The notes: generated by a model not told the origin, from the sequence alone. A stretch of DNA of 64,000 bases from an uncultured Gammaproteobacteria bacterium (GCA_964467155.1 CAYXNZ010000005.1:2059-66058); one strand, 5' to 3'; numbered from the stretch's first letter, positions 12,964 through 53,065 are shown. Program-made: numbers and translations.

Positions 12964-13002
12964 ATTTACATCCGCCAGAAATGGTGGTTTTAAATTGATT
13001 AT

Positions 13003-13048
13003 TCGGGGGTCGTTCCGCCTATATTGGCGGAGACAGCTGGTTCCCCTG
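13003..13048 (+). pseudogene. Pseudo 5' half of tRNA-Gln with the D-loop replaced by a GC hairpin
   Basis: TCGGGGGTCGT (identical to the tRNA-Gln 5' end), then the hairpin TCCGCC-tatatt-GGCGGA (13014-13031), then GACAGCTGGTT (identical to the D-stem 3' strand plus anticodon stem), then CCCCTG. Confidence 0.7.
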
Positions 13049-13064
13049 TTTAGTGAAAAAATAT

Positions 13065-13135
13065 TCGGGGGTCGTCTAACGGTAGGACAGCTGGTTTTGG
13101 TCCAGTCAATCGGGGTTCGATTCCCTGCCCCCGAG
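13065..13135 (+). tRNA. tRNA-Gln (anticodon UUG)
   Basis: Manual cloverleaf: acceptor TCGGGGG/CCCCCGA (U1:A72, G73), anticodon stem GCTGG/CCAGT with loop TTTTGGT, T-arm CGGGG-TTCGATT-CCCTG. CCA is not encoded. Confidence 0.85.
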
Positions 13136-13183
13136 CAGATTTTTTAAAAAAAATATCGTTATTTTAAATTTAATATAAATACT

Positions 13184-13717
13184 ATGCAGGAACTTATACT
13201 TAATTTTATAAAACAAAATATAACAGATGCTATCTGGATTATTATTTTATTCTTTTTTAGCAGAATAGTTTTAAAGATTATAGTTATGCGGTTTGCGAAG
13301 ATAGTCGATGACGGAGACGATGATTATGAATCACAAAAAGAAAAACGGGCAAAAACTCTAAGTCATATCATCATAACAACCGGGAATATTATTATTTACG
13401 CTATAATTTTAATTATGATTTTAAGTGTATTTGGAGTAGATATTCGACCTATTCTGGCCGGGGCAGGTGTTGTTGGATTGGCAATCGGTTTTGGCGCGCA
13501 ATCATTAGTCAAGGATTTTGTTTCAGGACTTTTTATTTTAGTTGAAAATCAATATGGAATAGGTGATAAGATAAAAATAGGTAGTTTTGAGGGGGTTGTT
13601 ATTAGAATTACGATGCGTTCCACAGTATTAAAAAATAAAGAAGGAATGTTATATTATATTTCTAACGGATTGATAAAGGATGTGCTTAATATGTCTCAAC
13701 AAAAAAAATCTTTATAA
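13184..13717 (+). CDS. Small-conductance mechanosensitive channel (MscS)-like protein, short form
   Basis: 177 aa. The pore helix and start of the beta domain (GLAIGFGAQSLVKDFVSGLFILVENQYGIGDKIKIGSFEGVV) are paralogous to 36878-37732. It ends before the C-terminal alpha/beta domain. Confidence 0.65.
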   Translation: MQELILNFIKQNITDAIWIIILFFFSRIVLKIIVMRFAKIVDDGDDDYESQKEKRAKTLSHIIITTGNIIIYAIILIMILSVFGVDIRPILAGAGVVGLAIGFGAQSLVKDFVSGLFILVENQYGIGDKIKIGSFEGVVIRITMRSTVLKNKEGMLYYISNGLIKDVLNMSQQKKSL

Positions 13718-13729
13718 TATATTAATTTT

Positions 13730-13759
13730 GGTTCGAACATCGTCCACGACCCCGAGCAG
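13730..13759 (+). repeat. tRNA-Gln 3'-end-like direct repeat, copy 1 (att-like)
   Basis: GGTTCGAAcatcgtccacgaCCCCGAGCAG mimics the T-loop and acceptor 3' end of tRNA-Gln (GGTTCGATTCCCTGCCCCCGAGCAG), with a TCGT-cc-ACGA mini-palindrome. The core aacatcgtccacgaccccgagc (13736-13757) recurs at 19332 and 19704. Confidence 0.7.
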
Positions 13760-13763
13760 TTTT

Positions 13764-13792
13764 AAATAGCCCTGAAATAGGGGCTATTTTTG
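13764..13792 (+). terminator. Rho-independent terminator
   Basis: aaatagccc-tgaaata-ggggctattttt. Confidence 0.55.
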
Positions 13793-13927
13793 ATACCTTG
13801 GTAGGGTTTAGAACTTTTAGTTAAGGTAATTTTAGAGTATAATAAATTAATGAACGACGCTGTTGCATTAGATTCTAGAAACTGAGTAATATATAAAAGC
13901 GAAATTTATAATAATCCTTTTAAATTT

Positions 13928-14317
13928 ATGATTGGTTTAAAAAAAATAGACAAGCGCGGCGAAGCTATTCCCGGACTGTTAACGCTCCAAGTGGAAAGAC
14001 CATGGGGCTATTTTAGGCAATTTTGCGAGAACTCACCGGTAACCGTTAAGCTTATTGTTGTTAAACCCAATAAAATTCTGAGTTTACAAAGCCATGCTAA
14101 ACGTTCAGAATTTTGGCGCGTGCTAGAGGGTAGCGGACAAGCGGAGATAGACGGAAAAATGCAATCTCTAAAGATTGAAGACGAATTAATTGTTCCCGTT
14201 AAGGCTAAGCACCGTCTAAGAGCCGGAATTAATGGCTTAGAAGTTTTAGAAATATCATTTGGAGAATTTACCGAGAACGATATTATTCGCTATGAAGATA
14301 AGTATGGACGAATTTAA
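13928..14317 (+). CDS. Cupin-domain protein (mannose-6-phosphate isomerase type II C-terminal-like)
   Basis: 129 aa. ERPWGYF...LSLQSHAKRSEFWRVLEGSG...H is the cupin motif pattern seen in type II PMI cupin domains. Confidence 0.7.
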   Translation: MIGLKKIDKRGEAIPGLLTLQVERPWGYFRQFCENSPVTVKLIVVKPNKILSLQSHAKRSEFWRVLEGSGQAEIDGKMQSLKIEDELIVPVKAKHRLRAGINGLEVLEISFGEFTENDIIRYEDKYGRI

Positions 14318-17857: not shown

Positions 17858-19315
17858 ATGTTTTTAAGAAAAATTATAAAAAAGAATAGTTGGATTTTTG
17901 TTGCCAATTTGATTATAAGTTTGATTTTATCTTCAACGCGAAGAGGTGTTGACGCTACATTCTTTAATTTAGTGCCTGCTATATTTGTTTTGTTTTTATT
18001 ATTGCCCCTAGTAAGCGGAATTATATTGGTATTAATTCAAAATAAAAATAGGAGTTACGAATTTTTGCCGAATCTATTGTTCGGTTCCTGTCTGAATAAC
18101 GCTATTATTATTTTGGTTATAAGTTCAACCGAATATTTCCGTCATGGTTATGCATATTGCCAGTTCATCGATATTTTTGAAATGATTCATTTATTTCTAC
18201 CTTTGTTTGCCATTTCTATTTTTGGCGGTTTGATTGGGTTGGTTATCAAAGGCACTTCTATACAATTTAAGAAATATCCCGATTCAAAAATAACCTTGGT
18301 TCTCAGGAAAATATTTGGAGGAATCTTTTTAAGCATCGGGGCAATCGGGTCATCCGTAGCTATCGTGGTTTTTTTAATATTAGTGCTTCATCCTTCAAGT
18401 TCTTGGCTTAATATGGTGATGGTTGATTTTAAACTTATAGAAGTGGTGGGATTTATGGCTTATTACTTATTACTTTTGTCAGCTTTGTCTATTGTTCTGA
18501 TTCCCTTGATTTTAATCATGATTTTGGGCTTAATGCTGTTCTTTTTTAAAAAGAAATTTTTTAATAAAAAACTATTTTCTCGCCTGATTATATATTTTTT
18601 TATCTGGCTAGTGATATTTTTACTTCTATCTTCTTACACCAAATCTAACTTTGAATTGAAAAAAGCAGAAATGAAAGAAAATCAAATAGAAAGACATTTT
18701 AATATTAAAAATTTTGATAATATTTACATTTCGCGTTTTGTTAAATTTGATGAAATAATAATCGGACAAGGCGATCAATTTGATATCATGACTAGCGGGA
18801 GCCAATACGATCAGATAGGTTTAAATTTTGAAAAAAAAGATGACGATACTTTATTGATAAAAAGATCTGAACTTGAAACTTATTATAATACTGATACATG
18901 GACAATGGAAAATAGAAATGCCTTATTTCCTGCAGGTACAAAACATTTAACAATAAAGATTATAATGCCAGATATAAGTAAGATAAAATCTGAGGGTGGA
19001 CATATCGAATTGCTTGATTTTAATATCGATAATATTGATATTAAATTAAATAAAAGGTTTAATAATATAAAAGGAAATATTTCAGTCAAAGATACATTAA
19101 AGCTTGATACCAAAGGTGGGATAATAAACTTAGTAGGATCGGCAAAAAATTTAGTAATAAATTCAGGTGACTGTTGGATAGAAATGGACAAGTTTAGTGT
19201 CGAAAATGCGACAATCAATGCAAAAAACACAAGCAGATTGAATGTAAATGTGAGTAACAATATGAAAATAGAGTTAAACAAAAATTCTGGCATCACTAAT
19301 CATTATATCGAATAA
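17858..19315 (+). CDS. Polytopic membrane protein with C-terminal DUF2807/DUF4097-like beta-helical (putative adhesin head) domain
   Basis: 485 aa with ~8 hydrophobic helices. This is followed by FNIKNFDNIYISRFVKFDEIIIGQGDQFDI..LIKRS.. and repeated I-x-L-x-V strands. Confidence 0.55.
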   Translation: MFLRKIIKKNSWIFVANLIISLILSSTRRGVDATFFNLVPAIFVLFLLLPLVSGIILVLIQNKNRSYEFLPNLLFGSCLNNAIIILVISSTEYFRHGYAYCQFIDIFEMIHLFLPLFAISIFGGLIGLVIKGTSIQFKKYPDSKITLVLRKIFGGIFLSIGAIGSSVAIVVFLILVLHPSSSWLNMVMVDFKLIEVVGFMAYYLLLLSALSIVLIPLILIMILGLMLFFFKKKFFNKKLFSRLIIYFFIWLVIFLLLSSYTKSNFELKKAEMKENQIERHFNIKNFDNIYISRFVKFDEIIIGQGDQFDIMTSGSQYDQIGLNFEKKDDDTLLIKRSELETYYNTDTWTMENRNALFPAGTKHLTIKIIMPDISKIKSEGGHIELLDFNIDNIDIKLNKRFNNIKGNISVKDTLKLDTKGGIINLVGSAKNLVINSGDCWIEMDKFSVENATINAKNTSRLNVNVSNNMKIELNKNSGITNHYIE

Positions 19316-19331
19316 ATATAATTTTAATTCT

Positions 19332-19353
19332 AACATCGTCCACGACCCCGAGC
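19332..19353 (+). repeat. Direct repeat, copy 2 (aacatcgtccacgaccccgagc)
   Basis: Exact 22-bp match to 13736-13757, 17 nt after the stop of 17858-19315. Confidence 0.8.
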
Positions 19354-19361
19354 CTCGAATA

Positions 19362-19392
19362 AAAAACATCCGCCCTTAGCGGATGTTTTTTA
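19362..19392 (+). terminator. Rho-independent terminator
   Basis: aaaaaacatccgc-cctta-gcggatgtttttt. Confidence 0.65.
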
Positions 19393-19408
19393 TTTTTCTC
19401 CTAAATTA

Positions 19409-19417
19409 TGCTATAAT
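19409..19417 (+). promoter_or_regulatory. Extended -10 promoter element TGCTATAAT
   Basis: The same 9-mer is found upstream of two other plus-strand genes (21508, 38390). Here it lies 48 nt upstream of the GTG start at 19465. Confidence 0.45.
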
Positions 19418-19464
19418 TTAGAATAATAATATCTTTATTTAAATAAAAATTAATAATTAAAACT

Positions 19465-19689
19465 GTGAAAATCAAAAAGTTATTTTTATTAAGCTGGAGA
19501 AAACTTTGGATAGTTGTTGTTGGAGGATTTATTTCAATAATTCTGCACAACTTAATAAGTGAATTGACGGGAACAGAGGAAGTTTTCTTCTTCATGCTCG
19601 TAATTTTCGTGTTACCCATTTATATTTTAATTGCCGTCATATACAGCTTGATTTACAAAATCAAAAATAGAAACCATAAGAATCCTTAA
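19465..19689 (+). CDS. Small two-helix membrane protein (hypothetical)
   Basis: 74-aa ORF with a GTG start and two hydrophobic segments. It is bracketed by a promoter-like element, direct repeat copy 3 and a terminator. Confidence 0.4.
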   Translation: MKIKKLFLLSWRKLWIVVVGGFISIILHNLISELTGTEEVFFFMLVIFVLPIYILIAVIYSLIYKIKNRNHKNP

Positions 19690-19703
19690 ATTACACCTAC
19701 TTA

Positions 19704-19721
19704 AACATCGTCCACGACCCC
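19704..19721 (+). repeat. Direct repeat, copy 3 (aacatcgtccacgacccc)
   Basis: Exact 18-bp match to the core of copies 1 and 2, 15 nt after the stop of 19465-19689. Confidence 0.75.
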
Positions 19722-19749
19722 AAATAAAAAATACTCAAAAAAATAAGAT

Positions 19750-19776
19750 AGCCCCGACCACTATGTGATCGGGGCT
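19750..19776 (-). terminator. Rho-independent terminator of the beta-CASP gene
   Basis: agccccga-ccactatgtga-tcggggct. The T-run is on the minus strand (the A-run at 19735-19749 on plus). Confidence 0.6.
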
Positions 19777-19781
19777 TTCTG

Positions 19782-21353
19782 TTATAAAATTTTGATTTCC
19801 TCATTCAATTGCGGAATTGAAATTTTACCTCTCCAATTACGTTCTGGAAAATCTAAAAGTTTTCGTTTTAATGCCAATCCGCTTTTTCTTTCTCCGTGGA
19901 CAATAAGTATCCGTGATTCATTGTCAGTTACCGCATTGGCATATTCTGTTAAATAACGACTGTCAGCATGAGCCGATAAACTGTCAAAAGAAACTATTTT
20001 CGCTCTAATAATAATTTCTTCATCATTCATATTGACAGCTCGGACTCCCTCCTTGAGTCTTCTCCCTAAGGTATCCTTTGCCATATAACCGACTAGACAT
20101 ACAGTGGTGTCATAGCGTGGTAACCCGCAACGCAAATGATTTCTGACTCTACCAGCATTGCACATGCCAGAACCAGCGATAACAATATAGGGCCCAGGTA
20201 ATTTTAATAAATTAACTGAGTCTAGCTCATCTGTTATCACCTTCAAAAAAGAATTATCATCTACAGCAAAAGGGTTAAAAGGTAAAACGTCTTGTCCTTT
20301 AAACATCGGGGAAGACCAATGTCTGGCATATACCGCAGTAATTTTGGAAGCCATGGGGGCGTCCAAGTAAATCGGGATTGAAGAAATCTTTCCTTCATGT
20401 ATTGCACAAGATAAAAGATAAATAATTTCCTGTGCTCTTTCAAGAGCAAATGAAGGAATGATTATTCTGTGTTTTTGTTCAATCGCCTCAGATACAAGAC
20501 TGAATAATTTATCTATTTCTTGCTGTCTTTTCGGATGCCTCCTATCACCGTAAGTAGATTCAATCATTAAATAATTAATTTTTGACTTAGGCATTTGAGG
20601 TGCAGGCAGTATAATCCCATCTTTTCTGCCTAAATCTCCAGCAAAAGCAAGCTTAAAATCCGGTGCATTATTTCGCGTAATACTAATTACGCCTAATGCT
20701 CCGCCTAAAACATGCCCAGTTTCATAAAATTCTAAATGAATACCTGTATTCAATTTAATTGAACGTCTATAGCCAAAACCTTCATTTTTCACTGAAGCAA
20801 GACAATTCTCTACATCTTTTACTGTAAAGAGGGGCTGTGTTTTTTTAATAACAGGATTCTTTTGTTTTTTATACTCTCCCCTGTGTCCCGCACAACCGCT
20901 ACGTCCACCTCTGTACCCCCCTTTGCTATGACCGTTACTCTTACATTTTCTTTGATTTTCGCTTACTCTCTTTTTTTGTTTGTCTTGATTTTTTGCATTC
21001 TGCATTTGTATCTTGGCAGAGTCCAAAAGCATTACTGGCAATAAGTCGCTAGTAGCTTCAGTGCAAATTACTCTACCTCGAAAACCTTTCCGAACAAGCA
21101 ATGGTAAACGCCCAACATGATCAATATGTCCGTGAGTAAGAAAAACGTAGTCAATACTACTCACATCCACCTTTTCTAAAATAGCGAGATTATTTTCTAC
21201 AAAATTTTTGAATCCACACTGGAACAATCCAACGTCCGTTAAAATTCTTGTAGTCCTTTTGCCTCTTTTTATAGTTGTTAAATAGCAAGATCCAGTTAAA
21301 TTTTCCCCAGAAGCAGTCCCACCTAAAATTTTCATATCAACCGTAACTCTCAT
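19782..21353 (-). CDS. MBL-fold beta-CASP ribonuclease (RNase J/CPSF-like) with a basic RGG-like insertion
   Basis: HGHIDH metallo-beta-lactamase motif (LTHGHIDHVG), beta-CASP-type downstream motifs (..ESTYGDR.., ..SAHAD.., ..VHGE). A K/R/G-rich insert lies at about residues 117-172. Confidence 0.8.
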   Translation of the reverse strand: MRVTVDMKILGGTASGENLTGSCYLTTIKRGKRTTRILTDVGLFQCGFKNFVENNLAILEKVDVSSIDYVFLTHGHIDHVGRLPLLVRKGFRGRVICTEATSDLLPVMLLDSAKIQMQNAKNQDKQKKRVSENQRKCKSNGHSKGGYRGGRSGCAGHRGEYKKQKNPVIKKTQPLFTVKDVENCLASVKNEGFGYRRSIKLNTGIHLEFYETGHVLGGALGVISITRNNAPDFKLAFAGDLGRKDGIILPAPQMPKSKINYLMIESTYGDRRHPKRQQEIDKLFSLVSEAIEQKHRIIIPSFALERAQEIIYLLSCAIHEGKISSIPIYLDAPMASKITAVYARHWSSPMFKGQDVLPFNPFAVDDNSFLKVITDELDSVNLLKLPGPYIVIAGSGMCNAGRVRNHLRCGLPRYDTTVCLVGYMAKDTLGRRLKEGVRAVNMNDEEIIIRAKIVSFDSLSAHADSRYLTEYANAVTDNESRILIVHGERKSGLALKRKLLDFPERNWRGKISIPQLNEEIKIL

Positions 21354-37800: not shown

Positions 37801-38260
37801 TTCCCCCACACCAGCCCCTCCAATTCGGAGGACGGGAGAGGGAGCATATATTTATTATAGTCCCCTCTCCCGTGAGGAACGAACGGGGGAGGCCTGCCCG
37901 CCGAATTGGAGGGGTTAGGGAGGTTAAAATAAGAAAAAAAATAACCCCCTTAATCCCCCTTTACAAGAGGGACAAAATAGTTCCCTCTCCCGTGAGGAAC
38001 GAGCGGGGGAGGGGTTAGGGAGGGGGTTTCTTTCACTTTAGTCCACAAAAACCTAGACTAAAGTCTATATTTTAAATTTCTATTCTGTCATTCTGAGGAT
38101 CTTTATAACCCCCACCCCAACCCTCCCCCACAACAAGTTGCGGGAGAGGGAGCACACATTTGCATAGTTCCCTCTCCCGTGAGGCACGAACGGGGGAGGC
38201 CTGCCCGCCGAATTGGAGGGGTTAGGGAGGGGGTCTCTTATCCCCTCCTTCTCCCCTTTC
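37801..38260. repeat. GC-rich modular palindromic repeat locus B (three right-hand units plus accessory hairpins)
   Basis: Right-hand units lie at 37863-37923 (long variant), 37983-38026 (short) and 38170-38233 (long). The accessory hairpin ccccctttacaagaggg lies in 37941-37980. A gtcattctgaggatc module is at 38088-38101. Confidence 0.8.
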
Positions 38261-38666: not shown

Positions 38667-38786
38667 TCCAAAAAATTAATTAATTAAATACTAAATAAAT
38701 CAATTTCCAAAACACACTCATTAGCGTTTAACATATAATTTATTTAATTTAAAAAACGCTAAGTGGTTTGGAATAAGGAAAATATT

Positions 38787-41700: not shown

Positions 41701-44700
41701 CTGGAACAGCTGTTAATAGCGCGGAAGTAACTATTGAAAGTGTTACTTATACTGACACCACACACTTTAATGTTGCTTTGGCATGGAGTGGACTAAATTA
41801 TGATGTTGAAAAAACACTTACCATTAATGTAGCTGGAGCTACCTATGATGAAGGAACTGATCCTATTACTGACGATATTACTTTGACGGCGACTGTTGAG
41901 CCAACAGTAGAAGTAACCATGGGTGCTAATACTTTTAAGGTTGAAGAATCAACCCTGGTTACATTTACCTTCTCATCAGCTCCAACTGGATTTACAGTTG
42001 ATGATGTGACTACTATTGATAATGGTCTTCTTTCAGGATTCACAGTTACTGGTGATACAAAGATTTACACTGCAACTTTTACACCAACTGATGATACAGA
42101 AGCCGCAACAAATGTTATTACAGTTGGAACTGATTGGACTGATGGCACAAGCGCTCCATTAGCAGGAGATAGTTCTCCTAATTATACTATTGATACGAAG
42201 GAACCAACAATTACTATTACATCAAATGACGAAGCTCTATATACCGGAGATGCTGTCGCCACAATTACTTTTGATATTATTGGAGGCACGGTAGACTTTG
42301 CCCTTGAAGATGTTGTCGCGGTTGGTGGCAATCTTAATGCTTTCACAGAAGTATCAGCTGGAGTTCAATATACTGCTATCTTTACCGCGAGTAACGATAG
42401 TACTACTGGCGCAACAATTAATGTAGCGGCTGGAACATTCACAGATGCTGCTGGAAATAACAATACAGTTGCAATTCAAGAAACAATGACGGTTGATACT
42501 CTTGCTCCAACAATAAATACTGTTACTTCTAATGCTACAGAAACTGGTACATTAAAAGTGGGTGATGCGATTATTTTCACAGTTACACCTACTATCCAAG
42601 AAGCTGGCTTAACTGTTCTTCCTGCTACTTATAATGGAGGTGCTTTATCATGGTCAACTGGCGATAGTGGAGTAACCTATACCGCAACCTATACTGTTGC
42701 AGAAGACCAAACTGACCAGGATCCAGCTTTACAATTATTAGGCGTTACTTTGACAGATGCGGTTAGTAATACTGGCGCTGGTGTTAATGGTACTGATGTA
42801 GCAAAATTGATTGATGCTAATTCACCTGACATAACTTCTGTTACTTCTAATGCTACAGTAGAAGGTACATTAAAAGTAACCGATATGATTGTTTTCACAA
42901 TTACACCTGTTGTTCAAGAAGCTGGCTTAACTGTTGCTCCTACTACTTACAATGGAGGGACATTAGAATGGTCAAGTGTTGATGGAACAACCTATATCGC
43001 AACTTATACTGTTGTAGAAGACCAGGACGATCAGGATCCAGCTTTACAATTAACAAGCGTTACTTTGACAGATGCAGCTGGGAACGATGGTGTTTCTGCT
43101 GATGGCGCCGATGTAGCGAAGAAGATTGATGCTAATACTCCAACCGCAGCCTTTACGGCAGCCACAGATAATGTCGGTTCTGTCATGGGTCCTTTGAATA
43201 CTGGCGACACGACCGATGATACTGAGCTTCTACTTACCGGTGCCAATGAAACCGGTTCGACTGTGGAAGTCTTTAACGGAGCAGCATCGTTAGGCGCAGC
43301 CACAGTTAATGGCACTGGTTGGACTTACTCCGCTACTGTTGTTAATGGCACAACTTATCAATTCAATATTAAAGAAACAGACGCGGCAGGAAATATTAGC
43401 GATGCAACAGATGACTTCACAGTGATAGGAGATACCGCCGCTCCAACAGCCGTAGTTGTAGCCAACGAGGTTGCTATTTATGACAGTGATGCTGGTACTG
43501 ATGCATTTATAATTACTGCAACATTCTCTGAGGCTATGGATAATACAAAGATTCCAACCGTAGTATTCGATGCTGCTTTAGACTCAACTTTAACAAGTCC
43601 AGAAGGTGCTTGGAGTACAGTTGCTCATGATAATGATACATATACCTGGACTTATGATATTGCAGATGCAGGTGTTACAGTTGCAGATGTTGATGTCACT
43701 GTTGATGGTGGTGATGATATAGCAGGTAATGATCAGACTGCTAAAACTAATACAGATTACATTGATGTTGATACAGAAAATCCAACCACAACAATTTCCG
43801 ATGACGAAGATGGCGTAGCCAATATTACCGGTGGCAATATTACTTATACTTTTACCTTCGGTGAAGGTGTAACAGATTTTACTGTTGCTGAAGCTGTTGT
43901 AACGGGTGGTACTAAAGCTGTGGATTTCGCATCAGGTGTTTCTGGTGAGGCCGTCTATACTCTTGTAGTTACCCCAGACTCTGATTCTACAACTAATATT
44001 ACTGTCAATGTCGCCGGTGGCGTAGCTATTGATATAAACGGTAATGACAATGTTGTAGCTGCTGAATCAACACAGACAGTTGATACTCTGAGACCAACCG
44101 TTGGCATTACTGATGATAATGCTGGTACCGTCAATGACGGTAATCCCGAAGTGCTTTATACTTTTGAATTCAGCGAAAATGTTACCGGCTTTACCACCGA
44201 CGATGTCACTGTGACCGCTGGAGGAATCGCAGGCGAATTCAGCGCCACTGATGGCAGCAATACATATACTTTGGCTGTGACTGCGGACGATGGCAGTACC
44301 ACAAATATTAGTTTAACCATTTCTAATGCTGATTTAATTGATGCTAATAGCAATACTATGGCCGCTGATGCGACTGACACCGATCAAGCGGTTGATAGAA
44401 TAGAGCCAACCCTCTCAAGCGCTGCGCGAGATAACAATACACAAATTACTGTTACTCTAAGTGAACTTGCTAATGGAAGTAGCATTACTGATGCAAGTGA
44501 TGGTGGTTTCGTTGTTGCTGAAACTGACGCAGCTGAAACTACTTATGCAGTTTCGGATATCACTCCAGGAGTTACTAACGATTTAGTAGTCTTAACTGTT
44601 GCTGATCTCGGAGTATCTGCTAAAGAAGGCATTACCGTTACTTACTCTTCTGCAAACAACGGAGCCGTAACCGATGTAGCAGAGAATGATCTTGCTACAG

Positions 44701-46454
44701 ACACAACCGGTGTGACAATCGCTGCCTGGGATACGACAGCTCCAACTGTCATAGATGTGACATCTAATTTAGAAGATGGCTCATACAAAGTAGATCAAGT
44801 TGTTGATATTGATGTGACTTTTTCGGAAAATGTTATTTCTTCTGGCGATGTAACTATTACTTTTGATACAGGCGGAACTTGTACTTTCACAGTAGATGAT
44901 TCTGATACTGGAACATGTAACTACACTGTACTTGTAGGACATACCAGCGCTGATCTAACAGTCTCTTCTATTACTGGTGTGGTGAATGATATTGCAGGTA
45001 ATACGCTTGTAGTACCTGCGACACCGACTACAAATCTTGCGGCTAATAAGGCATTCGTTATTGACACAACCGCGCCAGCACTTTCAGTTGATGCTATAGT
45101 TGGTACTACTGTTTCTGAAGCCAATGATACAATCGTCTTGAATTTTGACGGTCCAGTAGTAACACATGATGGCGGAGCTTGGGCGGTTGAAGAATTTGAT
45201 TCTATTTCAGGATCTGAATCCGGCACTCTTGTTCTTACTACTGCAACCTTTGAATATACTAGTAATACATTGACTATTACTCTAGATGAAACAACAGATC
45301 ATGAATACTTAAAAACTGGAGAAACATTAACAGTCAATCCAGCTACTGATAAGATTAAAGATGCCGCTGACAATTCTCTAGTTACAACTGCAGTGGAAGC
45401 GACAAATCCTGTTGGTGGTGATAGTGTAGCCCCAACAATCTCATCCATGGTTTATACCCAAGGGGAAACTACTGTTACCGTTATTAGACCATCAGTATAC
45501 GGTTTAACAACAAGAGTAACTACAACATTTGATGAAGCCATGGAAGAAGGAGTTAAACCTCAAATTGCAATTGATGCGCAGGGAACAAGCGTTGATGTTA
45601 CAGCAACTAATATGACAAAAACATCGAGTACCGTTTGGTATTATGATTGGACCGTCCCAAATATTGATGCTATTCAAGGTGAAGCGACTATTACGCTTAC
45701 AGGAACAGACCTTGCCGGTATTGCCTTTAATTCCGCCTCTACACAAACAGTAACTATTGATGAAAAAAGTCCGGTAATAGCAAATGGTGGAGTTACTTTA
45801 GATAAAGATTCATATAGAATAACTCAAGATGCTAATGTAGAGGTTACTGTGGTTGAAGATAACACTGCTTCAACGATAACTGTAAATGGAGTTTCAGCAA
45901 TTGAGTCTGAAACGGCAGGAACATGGATCGGAACATTTGCTCATGGACAAGTAGCCGTCAGCACTTATTCATTTGATGTTGTCTTGACAGACGCTTATGG
46001 AAATGTAACTACCCAGATGGTTCAATATAGAGTAGTAGCTGATACTGCAACTGAACCAACAGAAATATCTGTTACTACTGCTTTAGTTAAACGAATTGCT
46101 ACTAAAAATGGTGAGTTTGACGATGGTTGGAGATGGGTTTTAGATGTTACTCTTCCAACTGCTTCAACAACTTTAAGTATGAGTTTTGATGATTTGACTG
46201 GTGCTGGAACGATTGATGCTACTAATATCCGTTTCTATTCAGCTGAATCTGACCATACTTCTGCCGGTCCAATAGTAATTGCGGCATCAGGAGCTGGTAC
46301 AGAATGGTCAGAAAGCATACTTCTCGATACTGATTTATATTCTAATATTGCTGGTAGACAAATTCAGATTACTGTCCAAGCCGCTGTTCCAGAAGGTAGT
46401 ACTAGCGGTGCCTATTCTGCCAGTTATGACATTCAAGCCAGTTTAGTGGAATAA
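38787..46454 (+). CDS. Giant repeat-rich secreted surface protein (S-layer/adhesin-like), 2555 aa
   Basis: AAGGA RBS 8 nt before the ATG at 38787. Signal peptide MIKKTKKMKLLSKLFIIALVISFGALGSAFSPIEQAQA. About 8 N-terminal ~110-aa modules (..NWAVTNLPxGV..T.TR...T.ATIALSGNR.VDYD..I.N.TVT..) alternate with a second module type. These are followed by many ~95-aa bacterial Ig-like modules (TxDTxxPT...FSE.V.GFT..D........). The protein is T/A/V/D-rich and has no Cys. Confidence 0.85.
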   Translation: MIKKTKKMKLLSKLFIIALVISFGALGSAFSPIEQAQAAADITLSDDTINEGSENEELITVTLAGDTFVGSLNTANWAVTNLPAGVVKSTISRTDETTVTIALSGDRAVDYDTSIENVTVTIAAAEFTSSAVQVSASTGVTLVATADDESVTAAWATSPGTSGAEATMDAEVLTVTLAGGTLISEQVTIGNITATGTAVSAAGVTIESVTWTDATHFDVALAWTATDYDEDKTLIINVAAAAYDEGAIAIATDEITLTATVEPIAIALSDNTIAEGSESAGVINVTLTEDTFIATLVQGNWAVTNLPTGVTKGTVTRLSDTTATIALVGDRDEDYDTSITNVIVTVQAGDLTLSDAIVASDGTGVTLVATDDAESIAITNDGITEGAEGGEVITVTLTGGTFADPLVPASWVVTNLPSGVTAGDPERTSATEATITLSGNRDVDYDSNITDLTVTVASDDIDDIDVPVSIATGVTFTASNDAESVAATWNGDPGTNGAEATLDADIITVTLTDGTFVKASVDNITISAGAGITKESVTYTDSTNVDILLAWDGTDFDDHETITVSVPVTAYADSTSGDAITDTINTVATDDGESIAITNDGITEGAEGGEVITVTLTGGTFADPLVPASWVVTNLPSGVTAGDPERTSATEATITLSGNRTVDYDSNITDLTVTVAAGDIDDSGGSVSIATGVTFTATDDGESIGVAWAGTPGTNGVEATMDAEIVTVTLSDGTLIEGSVNATNITATGTAVDDAGVTIESATYVDATSFTVALAWDDTDYDVNKILTINVAAVAYDDAGGAITGDITLTATVEPPSIALTDDTINEAAETGELITVTLTGDTFVESLTQINWTVTNLPTGVSKGTVTRTGATTATIALSGNRTVDYDTSIENVTVTIAADELYSYTLGSILASTGVTLVADASAETIGVAWAGTPGTSGVEVTMDSEIVTVTLTEGTLISDQVNMTNITATGTAVNSAEVTIESVTYTDTTHFNVALAWSGLNYDVEKTLTINVAGATYDEGTDPITDDITLTATVEPTVEVTMGANTFKVEESTLVTFTFSSAPTGFTVDDVTTIDNGLLSGFTVTGDTKIYTATFTPTDDTEAATNVITVGTDWTDGTSAPLAGDSSPNYTIDTKEPTITITSNDEALYTGDAVATITFDIIGGTVDFALEDVVAVGGNLNAFTEVSAGVQYTAIFTASNDSTTGATINVAAGTFTDAAGNNNTVAIQETMTVDTLAPTINTVTSNATETGTLKVGDAIIFTVTPTIQEAGLTVLPATYNGGALSWSTGDSGVTYTATYTVAEDQTDQDPALQLLGVTLTDAVSNTGAGVNGTDVAKLIDANSPDITSVTSNATVEGTLKVTDMIVFTITPVVQEAGLTVAPTTYNGGTLEWSSVDGTTYIATYTVVEDQDDQDPALQLTSVTLTDAAGNDGVSADGADVAKKIDANTPTAAFTAATDNVGSVMGPLNTGDTTDDTELLLTGANETGSTVEVFNGAASLGAATVNGTGWTYSATVVNGTTYQFNIKETDAAGNISDATDDFTVIGDTAAPTAVVVANEVAIYDSDAGTDAFIITATFSEAMDNTKIPTVVFDAALDSTLTSPEGAWSTVAHDNDTYTWTYDIADAGVTVADVDVTVDGGDDIAGNDQTAKTNTDYIDVDTENPTTTISDDEDGVANITGGNITYTFTFGEGVTDFTVAEAVVTGGTKAVDFASGVSGEAVYTLVVTPDSDSTTNITVNVAGGVAIDINGNDNVVAAESTQTVDTLRPTVGITDDNAGTVNDGNPEVLYTFEFSENVTGFTTDDVTVTAGGIAGEFSATDGSNTYTLAVTADDGSTTNISLTISNADLIDANSNTMAADATDTDQAVDRIEPTLSSAARDNNTQITVTLSELANGSSITDASDGGFVVAETDAAETTYAVSDITPGVTNDLVVLTVADLGVSAKEGITVTYSSANNGAVTDVAENDLATDTTGVTIAAWDTTAPTVIDVTSNLEDGSYKVDQVVDIDVTFSENVISSGDVTITFDTGGTCTFTVDDSDTGTCNYTVLVGHTSADLTVSSITGVVNDIAGNTLVVPATPTTNLAANKAFVIDTTAPALSVDAIVGTTVSEANDTIVLNFDGPVVTHDGGAWAVEEFDSISGSESGTLVLTTATFEYTSNTLTITLDETTDHEYLKTGETLTVNPATDKIKDAADNSLVTTAVEATNPVGGDSVAPTISSMVYTQGETTVTVIRPSVYGLTTRVTTTFDEAMEEGVKPQIAIDAQGTSVDVTATNMTKTSSTVWYYDWTVPNIDAIQGEATITLTGTDLAGIAFNSASTQTVTIDEKSPVIANGGVTLDKDSYRITQDANVEVTVVEDNTASTITVNGVSAIESETAGTWIGTFAHGQVAVSTYSFDVVLTDAYGNVTTQMVQYRVVADTATEPTEISVTTALVKRIATKNGEFDDGWRWVLDVTLPTASTTLSMSFDDLTGAGTIDATNIRFYSAESDHTSAGPIVIAASGAGTEWSESILLDTDLYSNIAGRQIQITVQAAVPEGSTSGAYSASYDIQASLVE
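39906..40109 (+). repeat. Exact 204-bp intragenic repeat, copy 1
   Basis: Base-for-base identical to 40563-40766 (checked by eye). The offset of 657 bp equals 219 codons. Confidence 0.9.
40563..40766 (+). repeat. Exact 204-bp intragenic repeat, copy 2
   Basis: Identical to 39906-40109. Near-identity continues for ~40 bp further downstream. Confidence 0.9.
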
Positions 46455-46503: not shown

Positions 46504-48252
46504 ATGAAAATACATAAAATTATCTTTTTGGTTACTCTAGGGCTATTGTTAACCGCTTCAACTTGTCTTGCTACCTGGACAATCGATAACGGTATTAGTA
46601 CTGGTAGTGGTGAAGCCATTACTGCTTACGAACCCGTTGCTAGTCCAGCTGCAGGAACATATCATGCTACCCAAAGTGTTATTTTAACAGCTACTGACGC
46701 TTCAGCTATTTGTTATACTATCGATGATAGTGATCCAGATTGCGCGACTGCAACTACTTGTAGTACTGGTACGGTTTATGATTCGGCTATTTCCGTGACC
46801 TTAACGGATACTATTAAAGCTATTTCTTGTTATGATGATAATAGTTATGTTTCTAAGTCTACTGTTGCTACTCATACTTATACTTTAACCTGCACAACCA
46901 GCAGTGTAACCAACGGAACAGTTGGAGCTTATTCGGGTTGTGCTGTTACTTGTAATTCTGGTTATACTTTGAGTGGTAGTACCTGTGTTACTTCCGGCGG
47001 AGGTGGCGGAAGTAGTGGTGGCTCTACAGCTACTGTACCAACCACACAACAAACTTCCATTACAACTACTGATGGAACACAAGTAACTACTTCAACTGAT
47101 ACTACTGGCGGAACCGCTACTGCTACTATTAATACTGTTTCATCCCCTACTAATAGCCAAACAGTTACCCTAGATACTTCCACTGTTGCTGATGCAAGCA
47201 GTGTTTCTGTTGAACTATCTGCTTTAGTTATGCAGGAGCTGGTCGCTGATCATGGCGCTGACATAGACTTAACCGTTAATATTACTAGTCAAACTGCTTC
47301 CTCTGACCAAAGAACAAGTACTGCTCTAGGTACTGGTACATTTTTAGTCGGTCTTGATGTTTTTAATGTAGAAATTCTGGCTGGAGACACTTCTATTACC
47401 AATTTTGACAATCCGCTAACTCTTTCTTTTGATGTTTCAGATATACCAAACCCAGAAAATTTAACTATCTCTTGGTTTGATACAACGCAAAACAAATGGG
47501 TGGATTTAGGTGGTACTCTATATGATGGTGTGCTAACAATTACTGTTAATCACTTAACTGACTTTGCAGTTATTAGAACAGGCACTACTACTGAAACTAC
47601 ACCTGCTACTACCCCTGAAACCAGTCCTACCGCTACCGTCACTACACGTGAACAACAAATCGTAAATATCTTAAATGAATCTTCTCTGATTTTTGATAGT
47701 GGTTATGATTTGACCAATTTACTATCTCATAATGGAGTAGCAGAAAATGCAACCGAACAAACTGCTAGCATGGAAAAATATACCAATACTTTAACTGCCG
47801 ACATGACTGACCTGACAACTGAAAATACTTACTCAATCAACAACTTTATTCTTTATGGTACTCAAACCACGAGAGTATTAGGCGCTGGTGAAAGAGCTGG
47901 TGTGGTTAATTCCTATAAATCAGCCTTTGATAAATTACCAACTACCGCTGATGAATGGGCTGATGTCATTAAAATCGGTAATGGTCGCTGGCCAAGCGAG
48001 GCTAGTCAAACTGCCGAAGATCGAGCAAAAATTAGCTTCAATACAATTTACTTGCGTGAAGCAGACATGGCTAATCCAAATGATAATGCCGCTGTCACCG
48101 TTATGGCCTACGGACTACGACCGGATGCGAGAAATTTAGACAGTGAGAAAGTCGCCATTAAAACCTTCAAAGCAATCTTTGGTTACAACCCAGTCGAAGC
48201 AACTTCTTGGGATGCAGTCAGAGCTATCGCCTACTCAGGTGCTGTGAGATAA
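46504..48252 (+). CDS. Secreted protein with N-terminal chitobiase/hexosaminidase-C-like (Fn3-associated) domain and a conserved C-terminal domain
   Basis: 582 aa with a signal peptide. PAAGTYHATQSVILTATDASAICYTIDDSDP is the typical CHB_HEX_C-like pattern. There are T/S/G-rich linkers. The C-terminal part is ...GAGERAGVVNSYKSAFDKLP...GNGRWP...WDAVRAIAYSGAVR. Confidence 0.75.
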   Translation: MKIHKIIFLVTLGLLLTASTCLATWTIDNGISTGSGEAITAYEPVASPAAGTYHATQSVILTATDASAICYTIDDSDPDCATATTCSTGTVYDSAISVTLTDTIKAISCYDDNSYVSKSTVATHTYTLTCTTSSVTNGTVGAYSGCAVTCNSGYTLSGSTCVTSGGGGGSSGGSTATVPTTQQTSITTTDGTQVTTSTDTTGGTATATINTVSSPTNSQTVTLDTSTVADASSVSVELSALVMQELVADHGADIDLTVNITSQTASSDQRTSTALGTGTFLVGLDVFNVEILAGDTSITNFDNPLTLSFDVSDIPNPENLTISWFDTTQNKWVDLGGTLYDGVLTITVNHLTDFAVIRTGTTTETTPATTPETSPTATVTTREQQIVNILNESSLIFDSGYDLTNLLSHNGVAENATEQTASMEKYTNTLTADMTDLTTENTYSINNFILYGTQTTRVLGAGERAGVVNSYKSAFDKLPTTADEWADVIKIGNGRWPSEASQTAEDRAKISFNTIYLREADMANPNDNAAVTVMAYGLRPDARNLDSEKVAIKTFKAIFGYNPVEATSWDAVRAIAYSGAVR

Positions 48253-48410
48253 AGCTTGCTTGTCCGCCGAAGCTTTAGCGTAGGCGGAGGATGCAGTCAG
48301 AGCGATTGCCTATTCAGGAGCTGTAAGATAAAGCTTGCTTGTCCGCCGAAGCTTTAGCGTAGGCGGAGGATGCAGTCAGAGCTATCGCCTACTCCGGAGC
48401 TGTGAGATAA
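48253..48410 (+). repeat. Two tandem 79-bp units, each a 37-nt GC hairpin spacer plus a copy of the last 13 codons and stop of the upstream gene
   Basis: Spacers at 48253-48289 and 48332-48368 are identical (TCCGCC-N14-GGCGGA). Tail copies at 48290-48331 and 48369-48410 still encode DAVRAIAYSGAVR-stop. Confidence 0.9.
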
Positions 48411-48488: not shown

Positions 48489-48700
48489 ATCCCCCTCCCT
48501 AACCCTCCCCCACCTCGCCGATTCGGCGGGCGGGAGAGGGAGCACGCGTTTGCATAGTTCCCTCTCCCGTGAGGAACGAGCGGGGGAGGGTTAGGGAGGG
48601 GGAAAATCCCCTCTCTTTTTTGTCATTCCCGCGAAAGCGGGAATCCCTGCCCGCCGGCAGGCAGGCAGGAGTAAACTGTATAAACGTTATTTGTTCCATT
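48489..48700. repeat. GC-rich modular palindromic repeat locus C (112-bp MITE-like unit with perfect 21-bp terminal inverted repeats, plus accessory hairpins)
   Basis: ccccctccctaaccctccccc (48491-48511) is the exact reverse complement of gggggagggttagggaggggg (48582-48602). The inner arms are cgggagaggga / tccctctcccg. Downstream lie the hairpin attcccgc-gaaa-gcgggaat (48625-48644) and the module ggcaggagtaaactgtataaacgtta. Confidence 0.85.
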
Positions 48701-48929: not shown

Positions 48930-49101
48930 TACGTCCCCTCTCCCGTGAGGAACGAGCGGGGGAGGGTTAGGGAGGGGGAAGAAATAAAAATTAAAATAAC
49001 CCCCTCAATCCCCCTTTGCAAGGGGGACAAATACGTCCCCTCTCCCGTGAGGAACGAACGGGGGAGGCCTGCCCGCCGGATTGGAGGGGTTAGGGAGGAG
49101 G
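48930..49101. repeat. GC-rich modular repeat locus D (two right-hand units plus the ccccctttgcaaggggg hairpin)
   Basis: Units lie at 48936-48978 (short) and 49038-49101 (long, with a nested cctgcccgccggattggag insert). The hairpin lies in 48996-49030. The locus ends directly at the ftsX stop codon (49102-49104). Confidence 0.8.
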
Positions 49102-52311: not shown

Positions 52312-52396
52312 AACAATATAATTATATCATAAATAATTATAAGCTACGAAATAAAATATTTCTAAACTTAAAATTTTGCAAATTTTAGACAAATTT

Positions 52397-52611
52397 GCGG
52401 GTGTCGTATAATGGTTATTACATCAGCTTCCCAAGCCTAATAAAAATAAATATGCAGGATTAGTACAATGGTAGTACATTTGCTTCCCAAGCAAGAAACA
52501 CGAGTTCGATTCTCGTATCCTGCTCAATCCGGCAGGCAGGCAAGCTGAGAAAGCCAGTCCCCTGCCCGCTCGTGCCTCGCGAGAGGCAGGCGGGGATTCT
52601 GGTCACCCGCT
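52397..52611 (+). pseudogene. Disrupted tRNA-Gly(CCC): the 5' part (52397-52436) and 3' part (52544-52611) are separated by an insertion that contains an intact tRNA-Gly; a 37-nt hairpin sits in the T-loop
   Basis: The 5' part is GCGGGTG-TC-GTATAATGGTTATTAC-A-TCAGC-TTCCCAA-GC. The 3' part is GCTGA-GAAA-GCCAG-T[hairpin 52559-52595]ATT-CTGGT-CACCCGC-T. The acceptor and anticodon stems are complementary across the gap. CAAGC occurs at both junctions. Confidence 0.7.
52454..52524 (+). tRNA. tRNA-Gly (anticodon CCC)
   Basis: Manual cloverleaf: GCAGGAT/ATCCTGC acceptor, D-arm GTAC-AATGGTA-GTAC, anticodon stem TTTGC/GCAAG with loop TTCCCAA, T-arm ACGAG-TTCGATT-CTCGT. CCA is not encoded. Confidence 0.85.
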
Positions 52612-52620
52612 CAAATATAA

Positions 52621-52693
52621 GCCGACCTAGCTCAACTGGTAGAGCAACGGTATCGTAAACCGTAGGTTGTGGGTTCAATTCCCACGGTCGGCT
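52621..52693 (+). tRNA. tRNA-Thr (anticodon CGU)
   Basis: Manual cloverleaf: GCCGACC/GGTCGGC acceptor, D-arm GCTC-AACTGGTA-GAGC, anticodon stem ACGGT/ACCGT with loop ATCGTAA, T-arm GTGGG-TTCAATT-CCCAC. CCA is not encoded. Confidence 0.85.
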
Positions 52694-52700
52694 CAAATAA

Positions 52701-52820
52701 ACGGTATCGCCCGCCCGCAACGACTTACGTCTTGCGGAAGTCGAGCGGGTAAACCGTAGGTTGTGGGTTCCCTGCCCGCTCGTGCCTCGCAGAGGCAGGC
52801 GGGAATTCCCACGGTCGGCT
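52701..52820 (+). pseudogene. Partial tRNA-Thr copy A (anticodon stem to 3' end) with a 40-nt hairpin inside the anticodon and a 33-nt hairpin in the T-loop
   Basis: ACGGTATCG[52710-52749]TAAACCGTAGGTTGTGGGTTC[52771-52803]AATTCCCACGGTCGGCT. Apart from the two inserts it is identical to tRNA-Thr positions 27-73. Confidence 0.8.
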
Positions 52821-52827
52821 CAAATAA

Positions 52828-52947
52828 ACGGTATCGCCCGCCCGCAACGACTTACGTCTTGCGGAAGTCGAGCGGGTAAACCGTAGGTTGTGGGTTCCCT
52901 GCCCGCTCGTGCCTCGCAGAGGCAGGCGGGAATTCCCACGGTCGGTT
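52828..52947 (+). pseudogene. Partial tRNA-Thr copy B (second 127-bp tandem unit)
   Basis: Same structure as copy A, with inserts at 52837-52876 and 52898-52930. There is one C>T change in the acceptor 3' strand (GGTCGGT). Confidence 0.8.
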
Positions 52948-52954
52948 CAAATAA

Positions 52955-53047
52955 ACAGTGCTGGATCCGGGCTTTGTCCGGAGCTATAGTGAAATTTTAC
53001 CCGTCCGAATCCGCCAACTGGCGGAATATGCGGGCCCACGGTCGGTT
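52955..53047 (+). pseudogene. Third, more degraded tRNA-Thr 3'-end remnant preceded by other GC hairpins
   Basis: Ends in CCCACGGTCGGTT (the T-stem 3' strand plus acceptor). Upstream are the hairpins TCCGG-gctttgt-CCGGA and TCCGCC-aact-GGCGGA (53010-53025). Confidence 0.55.
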
Positions 53048-53065
53048 CAGAAATAATCATATAAT

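Follow-up and report, generated by a model that had tools for sequence, protein, structure and literature searches.

What process leaves pieces of a gene beside an intact copy of the same gene, with short GC-rich hairpins set into or next to the displaced pieces? The question is raised by a 64,000-nt stretch of DNA deposited as an uncultured Gammaproteobacteria bacterium (GCA_964467155.1, CAYXNZ010000005.1:2059-66058; hereafter the window), in which an original prediction had described a "replace-and-displace" pattern at the ends of transfer RNA (tRNA) genes and of one protein gene. The window is AT-rich (GC 34.5%) and has ordinary bacterial gene content, including a PBP5-like carboxypeptidase, FtsEX, MscS, a P-type ATPase and glycosyltransferases. 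ARAGORN and Rfam place three tRNA genes in it: Gln-UUG (13065-13136), Gly-CCC (52454-52525) and Thr-CGU (52621-52694). With the PBP5-like protein as query, 39 loci were retrieved from species-representative genomes, mostly named Candidatus Falkowbacteria, Parcubacteria or Patescibacteria and with a closest match of 80% identity, which indicates that the window organism is a bacterium of the Candidate Phyla Radiation (CPR), of the CPR/Falkowbacteria kind with a tiny genome. With confidence a little above even, we read the window as a whole as holding relics of small, GC-clamped palindromic insertion elements that are widespread in CPR (Patescibacteria) and that can carry a spare copy of the tRNA gene they enter.

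The elements are most complete in relatives. The tRNA-Gly/tRNA-Thr pair beside the PBP5-like gene is kept in about 30 Falkowbacteria relatives, and its plain state is seen in L006 and L007 (L numbers denote the loci, contigs and assemblies compared), with spacers of 10 nt and 3 nt and no GC inserts. L016 has three nested tRNA-Thr(CGU) genes, the outer two each cut after GGTAGA between tRNA positions 23 and 24 (23/24). Gene 1 is cut by CCTGCCCGCC-AGTCGCTTAGT and gene 2, at the equivalent point, by CCTGCCCGCC-ATCGCCTAA; then follow in order the intact gene 3, GGCATAGGCAGGCGGG, the remainder of gene 2, which makes a good cloverleaf, GGTAAGCGGGG and the remainder of gene 1, which is degenerate and has extra hairpins in its anticodon and T loops. 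Two nesting levels with the same 23/24 junction occur in L013, L021 and L014, and the deepest nesting reaches three to four levels. The intact cassette in these relatives consists of CCTGCCCGCC…GGCAGGCGGG arms around a complete tRNA gene with the same anticodon as the resident tRNA gene that encloses it, with no target duplication. The original prediction had recognised hairpin elements and missed the whole tRNA gene between the arms of the loaded form, which is visible only in relatives.

A metagenome scan with the pattern AGCTCA-N(2-3)-GGTAGA-CCTGCCCGCC gave at least 120 matches and, with the genome loci, at least 105 distinct D-arm insertions. Among the matches listed, 95 of the 98 D-arm cases with enough sequence have a complete same-strand tRNA within 140 nt of the left arm, antisense cargo is never seen, and the cargo includes Thr-CGU, Thr-UGU, Thr-GGU, Val, Ala, Phe, Lys, Met and Ile. 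The three without a near tRNA are deeper nests, and a search of the 105 listed D-arm insertions for autonomous versions bearing an open reading frame (ORF) found none. Outer and inner anticodons agree in 24 of the 27 readable cases listed, against a chance agreement of about 0.4 per case calculated from anticodon frequencies; the three exceptions are mis-joins via extra hairpins. The cassette family with linker ATCGCCTAA was found in at least 11 different outer genes, and cassettes of this family therefore move between genomes. Identity between inner and outer copies is mostly 65-85%, as for foreign alleles; several pairs share 90-100%, and all three levels are identical in L214. The sole copy that scores as a tRNA is the innermost, many shells lack one half or the anticodon, and the outer shells read as dead, decaying copies. 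Between L013 and L021 the inner tRNA and arms are identical and the outer T arm differs by C56T and a stem change; these changes, only two in number, are a suggestive rather than conclusive sign that such shells are dead. Both cassette patterns gave only chance matches in viral collections, in GC-rich phages, and phages were rejected as cassette carriers. Nested tRNA genes and these motifs were not found described in the literature searched.

Within tRNA genes, insertion falls at three fixed positions, where hairpins without cargo also occur: 23/24 in the D stem, 35/36 in the anticodon loop and 56/57 in the T loop. Empty hairpins at 23/24 were read in L143, L147, L148, L152 and L230, and nests or hairpins at 35/36 in the window, L142, L153, L179, L165, L225, L167 and L133. 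A brute-force T-loop scan gave many false positives and only clean cases were kept, all of them after TTC: two tRNAs of the window, L163, L247 (twice), L225 and L161. Displaced tRNA-Gly 3' ends with T-loop CCCGCC…GGCGGG hairpins are found in L008 and L011, in tandem in the latter. Outside tRNA genes, empty hairpins stand in AT-rich intergenic DNA (L182, L131 and window position 48646) and within other repeats (window positions 37893, 38200 and 49068). The arm ends are conserved as CCYGCCYGCC and GGCRGGCRGG, and the inner parts of the arms vary yet stay complementary, as ATCGCC/GGCG (Thr), TGTGCT/AGCACA (Ala) or long AT-rich stems (L133, L167). Some loci (L237, L131, L136) have the order 5' shell, left arm, intact gene. 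In L247 (1457-5359), nests and hairpin-studded tRNA fragments fill the spacer after the 16S ribosomal RNA (rRNA) gene, whose own match spans 1705 nt against a 1533-position model and suggests an insertion there too.

At the tRNA-Gly locus of the window, an intact gene lies within a broken older copy:

52397-52436, + strand: 5' shell (positions 1-40) of an old tRNA-Gly(CCC) copy with acceptor GCGGGTG; identical in L001-L005
52437-52453, + strand: AT-rich filler of 17 nt after the 5' shell
52454-52525, + strand: intact tRNA-Gly(CCC) between the old copy's two halves, with acceptor GCAGGAT, which differs from that of the old copy
52529-52540, + strand: right-arm remnant CCGGCAGGCAGG, abutting the old tRNA-Gly at anticodon 35/36
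52541-52613, + strand: 3' shell (positions 36-76) of the old tRNA-Gly, with a 34-nt hairpin in its T loop

The displaced tRNA-Gly pieces that had been predicted are the two parts of one broken outer gene (52397-52436 and 52541-52613) that encloses the intact one. Its T-loop hairpin, CCTGCCCGC…GGCAGGCGGG (34 nt, 52561-52594), follows position 56, and the junction …GGGCAGG/CAAGC (the slash marks the junction), in the window CCGGCAGGCAGG/CAAGC, is the same as the right junction of a complete anticodon-loop tRNA-Gly nest in L153. With Rfam at a permissive threshold, the shells between 52300 and 53100 were too broken to score and no other RNA family appeared.

At the neighbouring tRNA-Thr locus, displaced 3' parts follow the intact gene:

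52621-52694, + strand: intact tRNA-Thr(CGU), called by tRNA finders
52702-52822, + strand: displaced tRNA-Thr part (positions 27-76) with two hairpin inserts
52829-52949, + strand: second 127-bp unit, one base different; not in three other assemblies
52956-53047, + strand: third tRNA-Thr 3' end, degenerate (CAGT…CCCACGGTCGGTTCA), holding hairpin TCCGCCAACTGGCGGA (53010-53025)

An AATAAA spacer separates the intact gene from the displaced copy of positions 27-76. The inserts are a 40-nt hairpin at anticodon 35/36 (52710-52749) and a 33-nt hairpin at T-loop 56/57 (52771-52803); once both are taken out, the displaced copy and the intact gene agree at 48 of 48 bases, and no target bases were therefore duplicated or lost at either site. 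The 3' part of tRNA-Thr does occur three times, as predicted, being two copies of a 127-bp unit and a degenerate third end. Tandem Repeats Finder reports 2.2 copies of the unit. Because the exact unit is present once in L001, L003 and L004 and twice in the window (52677-52956), and two contigs break within it, its copy number is uncertain and may reflect copy-number polymorphism or an assembly loop. The relics are flanked by a 509-aa ORF (53108-54637) that has no family match and is built largely from low-complexity repeats, pyrimidine-rich on the + strand.

On the 5' side of tRNA-Gln, similar remains are found:

12971-12993, + strand: terminator-like hairpin tCCGCCagaaaTGGTGGtttt upstream of tRNA-Gln; not a scar
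13003-13042, + strand: older tRNA-Gln shell (positions 1-33), D loop replaced by TCCGCCtatattGGCGGA (13014-13031)
13043-13064, + strand: linker CCCCTGTTTAGTGAAAAAAT from the shell to the intact tRNA-Gln, resembling AT-rich left arms (by eye)
13065-13136, + strand: intact tRNA-Gln(UUG) (ARAGORN, Rfam)

Reading of the sequence confirmed the predicted 5' fragment at 13003-13048. Its hairpin TCCGCCtatattGGCGGA has a folding z of -4.2, and the linker was likened by eye to the left arms CCCTGTTAAATC (L133) and CCCCGTTAGAAAT (L167). Among relatives, L011, L021, L023 and L025 have tRNA-Gln 5' shells whose hairpins stand in the D loop or anticodon, and 3' shells are present in L013, L022, L023, L025 and L038, with hairpins in D, anticodon or T loops across the two kinds. 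The sister genomes L013 and L021 are not alike at tRNA-Gln, so the events are recent. The hairpin at 12971 had been counted as a degenerate scar module; since a CCGCC…GGTGG-TTTT hairpin is kept about 20 nt upstream of tRNA-Gln in six relatives (L011, L013, L021, L028, L034, L043), it is a conserved terminator-like structure and not a scar.

The hairpins in the window are far more numerous than chance allows. TCCGCC…GGCGGA hairpins occur four times (13014, 48263, 48342 and 53010) against 0.03 expected, and CCTGCCCGC eight times (36742 on the minus strand, 37893, 38200, 48646, 49068, 52561, 52771 and 52898) against 0.10 expected; the window hairpins also fold better than shuffled controls. The two stem families named in the original prediction stand at these sites, without the one at 12971. 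Two further features of the window belong here:

48646-48669, + strand: empty free-standing hairpin CCTGCCCGCCGGCAGGCAGGCAGG, intergenic
37893-37912, + strand: CCTGCCCGCCGAATTGGAGG, a 20-nt piece inside a larger GC-rich palindromic repeat, repeated at 38200-38219 and 49068-49087

A relative of the CCTGCCCGCCGAATTGGAGG piece lies at 36741-36750 on the minus strand, and its host repeat has uninterrupted copies at 37980, 48557 and 48933. A separate family of GC-rich palindromic repeats of about 110 nt, with 21-bp ends CCCCCTCCCTAACCCTCCCCC…GGGGGAGGGTTAGGGAGGGGG, forms three intergenic clusters and is located at 36700-36880, 37800-38240, 48490-48605 and 48930-49100; some of its copies are split by CCTGCCCGCCGAATTGGAGG. 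For generic GC islands, the enrichment close to tRNA genes (within 300 nt) is modest and noisy, at just about 2-3-fold; the strong signal is the exact position of hairpins within tRNA fragments. Other assemblies reproduce the loci base for base (Gly/Thr in L001-L005, the protein tail in L248 and L001, Gln in L249-L251), and the copy number of the exact 127-bp unit is the only difference between assemblies. These features are real, far above chance, and are reproduced in up to five other assemblies.

The 3'-end mimics downstream of tRNA-Gln have a separate explanation:

13730-13759, + strand: attR-like junction 1, GGTTCGAACATCGTCCACGACCCCGAGCAG, then a terminator; closes a 0.6-kb island with a truncated MscS-like gene
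19333-19353, + strand: attR-like junction 2, ACATCGTCCACGACCCCGAGC, then a terminator; closes a 5.6-kb island
19705-19721, + strand: attR-like junction 3, ACATCGTCCACGACCCC, then a terminator

The motif ACATCGTCCACGACCCC, common to all three (13737, 19333 and 19705; 3 observed against 0.00 expected), is absent from tRNA-Gln itself, and the mimics are closer to one another and to a copy in L034 than to the tRNA. Each lies directly 3' of a stop codon and 5' of a terminator. The ACATCGTCCACGACCCC(GAGC) motifs stand 0.6, 6.2 and 6.6 kb downstream of tRNA-Gln and form attL/attR-like pairs with it; at the Gly shells, the Thr shells and the nested cassettes no such pair was found. In L034 the equivalent ACTTCGTCCACGACCCCGAGC lies 5.05 kb downstream of tRNA-Gln, and the intervening island encodes a large serine recombinase (18856-20640; Resolvase, Recombinase and Zn_ribbon_recom domains) that adjoins the tRNA. 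Homologues adjoin tRNA-Gln in L028 (13505-15238) and L043 (14148-15746), and tRNA-Gly in L036 (8610-9641). The reading frames of these tRNA-adjoining recombinases extend into the antisense strand of the tRNA. The mimics, which had been taken as replace-and-displace scars, are best read from such comparisons as far-end attR junctions of ordinary large-serine-recombinase islands whose enzyme has been lost from the window; their motif would be the element-side att arm joined to the old downstream flank and terminator, and the intervals of 0.6, 5.6 and 0.4 kb would be stacked islands without their enzyme. A candidate site for the recombinase at tRNA-Gln is ACATCGTCCACGA/CCCCGAGC. The 5.6-kb island contains cupin, GH130-glycosyltransferase and DUF2807 genes. 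The sole gene between tRNA-Gln and the first attR-like motif is the MscS-like ORF 13184-13717 (177 aa), which is without the C-terminal domain of its 284-aa paralogue at 36878-37732.

One protein gene, ORF 46504-48252, has a comparable repeat at its 3' end:

48210-48410, + strand: 79-bp unit, 2.5 copies (Tandem Repeats Finder)

The unit consists of the last 13 codons and stop of the ORF, a 10-nt linker and a hairpin TCCGCCGAAGCTTTAGCGTAGGCGGA (48263-48288 and 48342-48367), and the third tail copy runs into ancestral downstream sequence. All three tail copies encode DAVRAIAYSGAVR followed by a stop, a motif conserved in the protein family, and six of six variable sites are synonymous third positions, where about 27% synonymous changes would be expected at random; the 37-nt noncoding part (linker and hairpin) does not vary from unit to unit. 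The homologues from L252, L253 and L254 end in a single tail and a plain terminator with no hairpin, and the sequence downstream in L253 resembles that after the third tail of the window, which is therefore the ancestral copy. The tail hairpin family also occurs within tRNA shells and at 23/24 (L227, L247, L175, L031). This single case fits a substitute gene end that arrived with a hairpin and is probably the same process as at the tRNA loci, acting at a protein-gene end. The twice-displaced tail of the original prediction holds as a repeat with hairpins and does not generalise to these homologues. A diversity-generating retroelement was rejected for the tail repeat, which is just 42 nt long and whose differences show no adenine specificity. 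In L254 (GCA_974770705.1), three TTGCCTGCCCGCCAA pieces lie in antisense tRNA fragments some 1-1.5 kb downstream from the ORF homologue, so that genome also holds hairpin-studded tRNA relics.

Taken together, the loci are not one thing. The idea of replacement and displacement fits the tRNA loci, where relatives have an intact tRNA inside or beside the replaced pieces and one hairpin superfamily throughout; a single mechanism for five loci, or one architecture common to them, does not survive, given the separate causes of the 12971 hairpin and the Gln 3' mimics. The comparisons show directly the anatomy of the elements with their conserved paired ends, the three fixed sites, the precision of insertion, the equality of cargo and target, the nesting, the decay of shells and the occurrence across genomes. 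For the tRNA loci we propose the following sequence of events to account for them. An element whose ends, 5'-CCYGCCYGCC… and …GGCRGGCRGG-3', pair together around a variable, co-varying interior would enter with precision at D stem 23/24, anticodon 35/36 or T loop 56/57 and would duplicate no target bases. An empty hairpin (about 20-45 nt) would destroy the tRNA copy it enters. In the loaded form a complete tRNA gene with the same anticodon would sit in the apical loop, so that one event would kill and replace the resident gene, and repeated events would build nested "Russian-doll" genes whose dead outer shells decay and gather more hairpins. Recombination between nested direct repeats would then leave an intact tRNA and a displaced 5' or 3' piece with hairpins: recombination of outer with inner positions 1-23 would give intact gene, right arm and displaced 3' part, and the mirror event 5' shell, left arm and intact gene, as in the three loci with that order. 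The trimmed state would be that of tRNA-Gly, tRNA-Thr and the 5' side of tRNA-Gln in the window, and we infer that recombination produced the partial shells. Because these genomes hold single tRNA copies, selection probably imposes the match between cargo and target.

We prefer to read the insertion itself as a transposition-like step at the DNA level, for which an enzyme encoded elsewhere would be responsible, and the hairpins in AT-rich intergenic DNA and in other repeats argue for genuine insertion activity; a hairpin-recognising single-strand enzyme is our guess. The absence of a recombinase noted at the outset is borne out, as a comparison of the window ORFs of at least 100 aa with Pfam, NCBIfam and PHROGs gave no recombinase or transposase. 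Single-strand transposition of the IS200/IS605 or REP-RAYT kind, as had been suggested, agrees with precise insertion and no target duplication but not with left flanks that differ from site to site (…AGA/, …TCG/ and …TTC/). A large serine recombinase was rejected for the cassettes, as no 2-bp core repeated at both junctions can be read from the sequence, and a tyrosine integrase was rejected as the right-left arm junction and the target have no common identity block. An IS91-like GTTC/CTTG target fits the T-loop and tail sites and fails at 23/24 and 35/36. An RNA-level, sense-strand origin suggested by constant arm orientation was dropped, since both orientations occur at 35/36 and hairpins are also intergenic; the two "orientations" differ at just two non-Watson-Crick positions. 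More tentatively, and with doubt prevailing, the cassettes may constitute a new class of mobile element in CPR: a palindrome-clamped unit of about 100-130 bp whose sole cargo is a copy of the essential tRNA gene it destroys, inserted at points set by tRNA-gene structure through a mechanism outside the described transposase and integrase families, which could be either a structure-specific enzyme or a drive of DNA uptake and recombination in which the conserved 10-mer would act as the signal. Helix-in-helix insertions, known in CPR rRNA genes, may have the same process behind them.

Several points weigh against insertion elements as the whole explanation. An enzyme was found neither in the window nor, in a search that was not exhaustive, across about 1.4 Mb of related loci, and no sequence feature connects the three target sites. 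At least 35 linker or arm variants flank the cargo, a number that fits repeated placement of tRNA genes into pre-existing hairpins as well as one evolving cassette. One cassette family carries different anticodons, each matching its target, and the middle of the L137 cargo is that of the outer gene, so that recombination or gene conversion is needed on top of insertion. The tRNA-Thr shells of the window begin at position 27 after the AATAAA spacer with no GC arm and may be a plain tandem duplication that hairpins colonised later. The protein-tail case is confined to this lineage, the homologues in L252-L254 being without a tail repeat, and the serine-recombinase reading of the Gln mimics draws on one relative with both motif and enzyme (L034).

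An explanation with no dedicated enzyme is, in our view, a serious if rather improbable rival: relatives' DNA would be taken up and joined by RecA recombination or one-sided illegitimate joining, tRNA halves and protein tails serving as short homology anchors, the GC hairpins serving as break points (e.g., through hairpin cleavage in replication) or as uptake or drive signals, and the nests spreading as homing alleles whose cargo matches the target since homology is required. It would account well for cargo that, among the matches listed, is always co-oriented with the outer gene and shares its anticodon, for inner genes that are often foreign alleles, for the L137 mosaic of cassette ends and the outer gene's middle, for tail copies that differ only synonymously, like diverged alleles, for 5' shells after which an AT-rich filler of foreign appearance leads into an identical new 5' part (L021), and for a window that encodes no recombinase. 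It leaves the first insertion and the conserved 10-nt arm ends unexplained, fails for empty hairpins in non-tRNA intergenic DNA or other repeats, and has to place hairpins at the same precise sites across tRNA species though the flanks share only 5-16 nt. The motif occurs about once per 8 kb in the window, and known uptake sequences are far denser than this. If all five loci were instead scars of tyrosine or serine recombinase islands, with interiors deleted, tandem att remnants and unrelated hairpins, the large serine recombinase genes beside tRNA-Gln (L028, L034, L043) and tRNA-Gly (L036) would be expected, as would the window motif at the far end of such an island in L034, and partial tRNA genes are known to be a common product of kb-sized integrations (10.1101/2022.07.05.498093). 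We consider this unlikely for the set as a whole: nested cassettes of 100-130 bp are too small for an enzyme, the target GGTAGA/GCAA becomes GGTAGA/CC…GG/GCAA with no core dinucleotide or direct repeat, and in many genomes the hairpins keep to three particular tRNA positions and are not scattered at random through dead DNA.

The inserts might also behave like introns, the outer genes being transcribed, the hairpin or cassette removed from the RNA and the outer copies functional. Archaeal tRNA introns occur at non-canonical positions, and the D-arm, anticodon-loop and T-loop sites recall them; some 24 outer genes fold as tRNAs after removal of the insert, and group I introns are present in CPR tRNA genes (PMC13011429). 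Many shells, however, lack the 5' half, the 3' half or the anticodon, and outer copies accumulate disabling hairpins and substitutions (C56T in L021). The three-way junction made by the arms reads as flush, with no bulge-helix-bulge; the identical hairpin type stands in intergenic DNA, and Rfam applied to the window and eight nest-bearing loci returned only tRNA, rRNA and LOOT and no intron or ribozyme family. We regard the intron-like reading as highly improbable. An assembly artefact, in which strain variants or repeat loops were joined in tandem by the assembler, would suit the 127-bp unit, which three assemblies have once and the window twice, and inside which two contigs end. As the remaining sequence agrees base for base in up to five independent assemblies, and the architectures are seen again in more than 100 contigs, which come from unrelated projects and assemblers, we give it almost no weight. 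The preferred reading remains that of mobile, GC-clamped elements, to which recombination would add its own rearrangements.

Elsewhere in the window, a TrwB/TraG-like type IV coupling protein ORF (60026-61816) lies beside a 480-aa ORF (61819-63261) whose weak match is to a family of uncharacterised phage proteins, a 2563-aa Big_12 repeat protein (38763-46454) has internal repeats of about 660 bp, and two He_PIG-domain genes share a 300-nt stretch at 85% identity (2198-2497 and 6500-6799).

An element that breaks a single-copy essential gene and delivers a full replacement for it would impose no host cost. This mode is distinct both from that of integrases, where only the end of a gene is regenerated, and from the splicing of introns. 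It would explain CPR genomes littered with tRNA fragments in which tRNA finders see the innermost copy alone, and it bears on annotation and on completeness estimates. Inner genes are often foreign alleles, so that core tRNA genes undergo horizontal replacement in minimal genomes supposed to be static. Helix-in-helix insertions would offer a tractable model for helix gain in structured RNA, an open question in rRNA evolution, and a short cassette with a conserved tRNA site as its point of integration could serve as a tool for genetic work on CPR bacteria, in which manipulation is difficult.

Among known systems, tRNA-targeting integrative elements are alike in that an essential target is broken and repaired in one step by an element-borne copy, and displaced partial tRNAs mark past events, which accounts for the Gln 3' mimics. 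The cassettes differ in being about 100-130 bp long and enzyme-less, in carrying a whole tRNA rather than its 3' part, in having neither a shared core nor a direct repeat at their points of entry (23/24 or 35/36), and in re-targeting their own cargo, which leads to nesting; an element-encoded recombinase is absent from the window and is found in relatives for the tRNA-Gln islands only. REP/REPIN elements mobilised by RAYT, and palindromic elements derived from IS200/IS605, resemble them in being short, GC-rich imperfect palindromes, which are non-autonomous, have co-varying stems and make no target duplication, and REPINs have two inverted repeats around a spacer as the arms surround the tRNA. 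REP palindromes bear a conserved GTAG or CGTC end tag (PMC3733652), whereas the element ends here are CCYGCC…/…GGCRGG with neither tag, and GTAG appears only in the loop beside the 3' arm (…GCGTAGGCGG). The two cassette ends pair mutually, whereas REP ends each have their own hairpin, and the cassettes, whose cargo is a gene, enter other genes at defined points of their structure. Neither RAYT nor TnpA was seen, and window ORFs of at least 100 aa match no transposase family. The palindromes here also seem numerous, at 8 + 4 copies per 64 kb in the window, many of them within tRNA-gene fragments and so not purely extragenic. As in IS200/IS605, target duplication is absent (tRNA-Thr 48/48; D-arm junction GGTAGA/…/GCAA), but there is no fixed flanking tetra- or pentanucleotide: left flanks in tRNA genes are GGTAGA/ (23/24), (C/T)(C/T)G/ or TCC/ (35/36) and GGTTC/ (56/57), and those of intergenic hairpins are GGAGG/ or GAATC/.

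Miniature inverted-repeat transposable elements (MITEs) and mobile insertion cassettes likewise have terminal inverted repeats around a passenger and no transposase gene; here the target is strictly a set of tRNA positions, the passenger equals the target, and duplication is absent wherever the uninterrupted sequence is known. Free-standing homing endonuclease genes of organelles and phages bring a substitute gene end and leave the old end downstream, similar to the tails of ORF 46504-48252, but no endonuclease ORF lies in or beside the insert, the units are 79-130 bp, and the 79-bp and 127-bp units contain no ORFs. Archaeal non-canonical introns and split or permuted tRNAs also have related short inserts at several positions and GC helices that join tRNA halves; the present organism is a bacterium, the three-way junction is flush without 3-nt bulges, the interrupted copies, truncated or mutated, appear to be decaying pseudogenes, and the insert can itself be a tRNA gene. 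Fungal mitochondrial GC clusters, with double-hairpin elements, and Rickettsia palindromic elements are similar as GC palindromes in small AT-rich genomes that can enter genes; neither mobile GC clusters nor Rickettsia palindromic elements are known to be associated with a replacement gene or with tRNA nesting. The definitions of integrase elements, MITEs, IS200/IS605, REP-RAYT, introns and homing endonucleases each fail on at least one tested feature of these cassettes.

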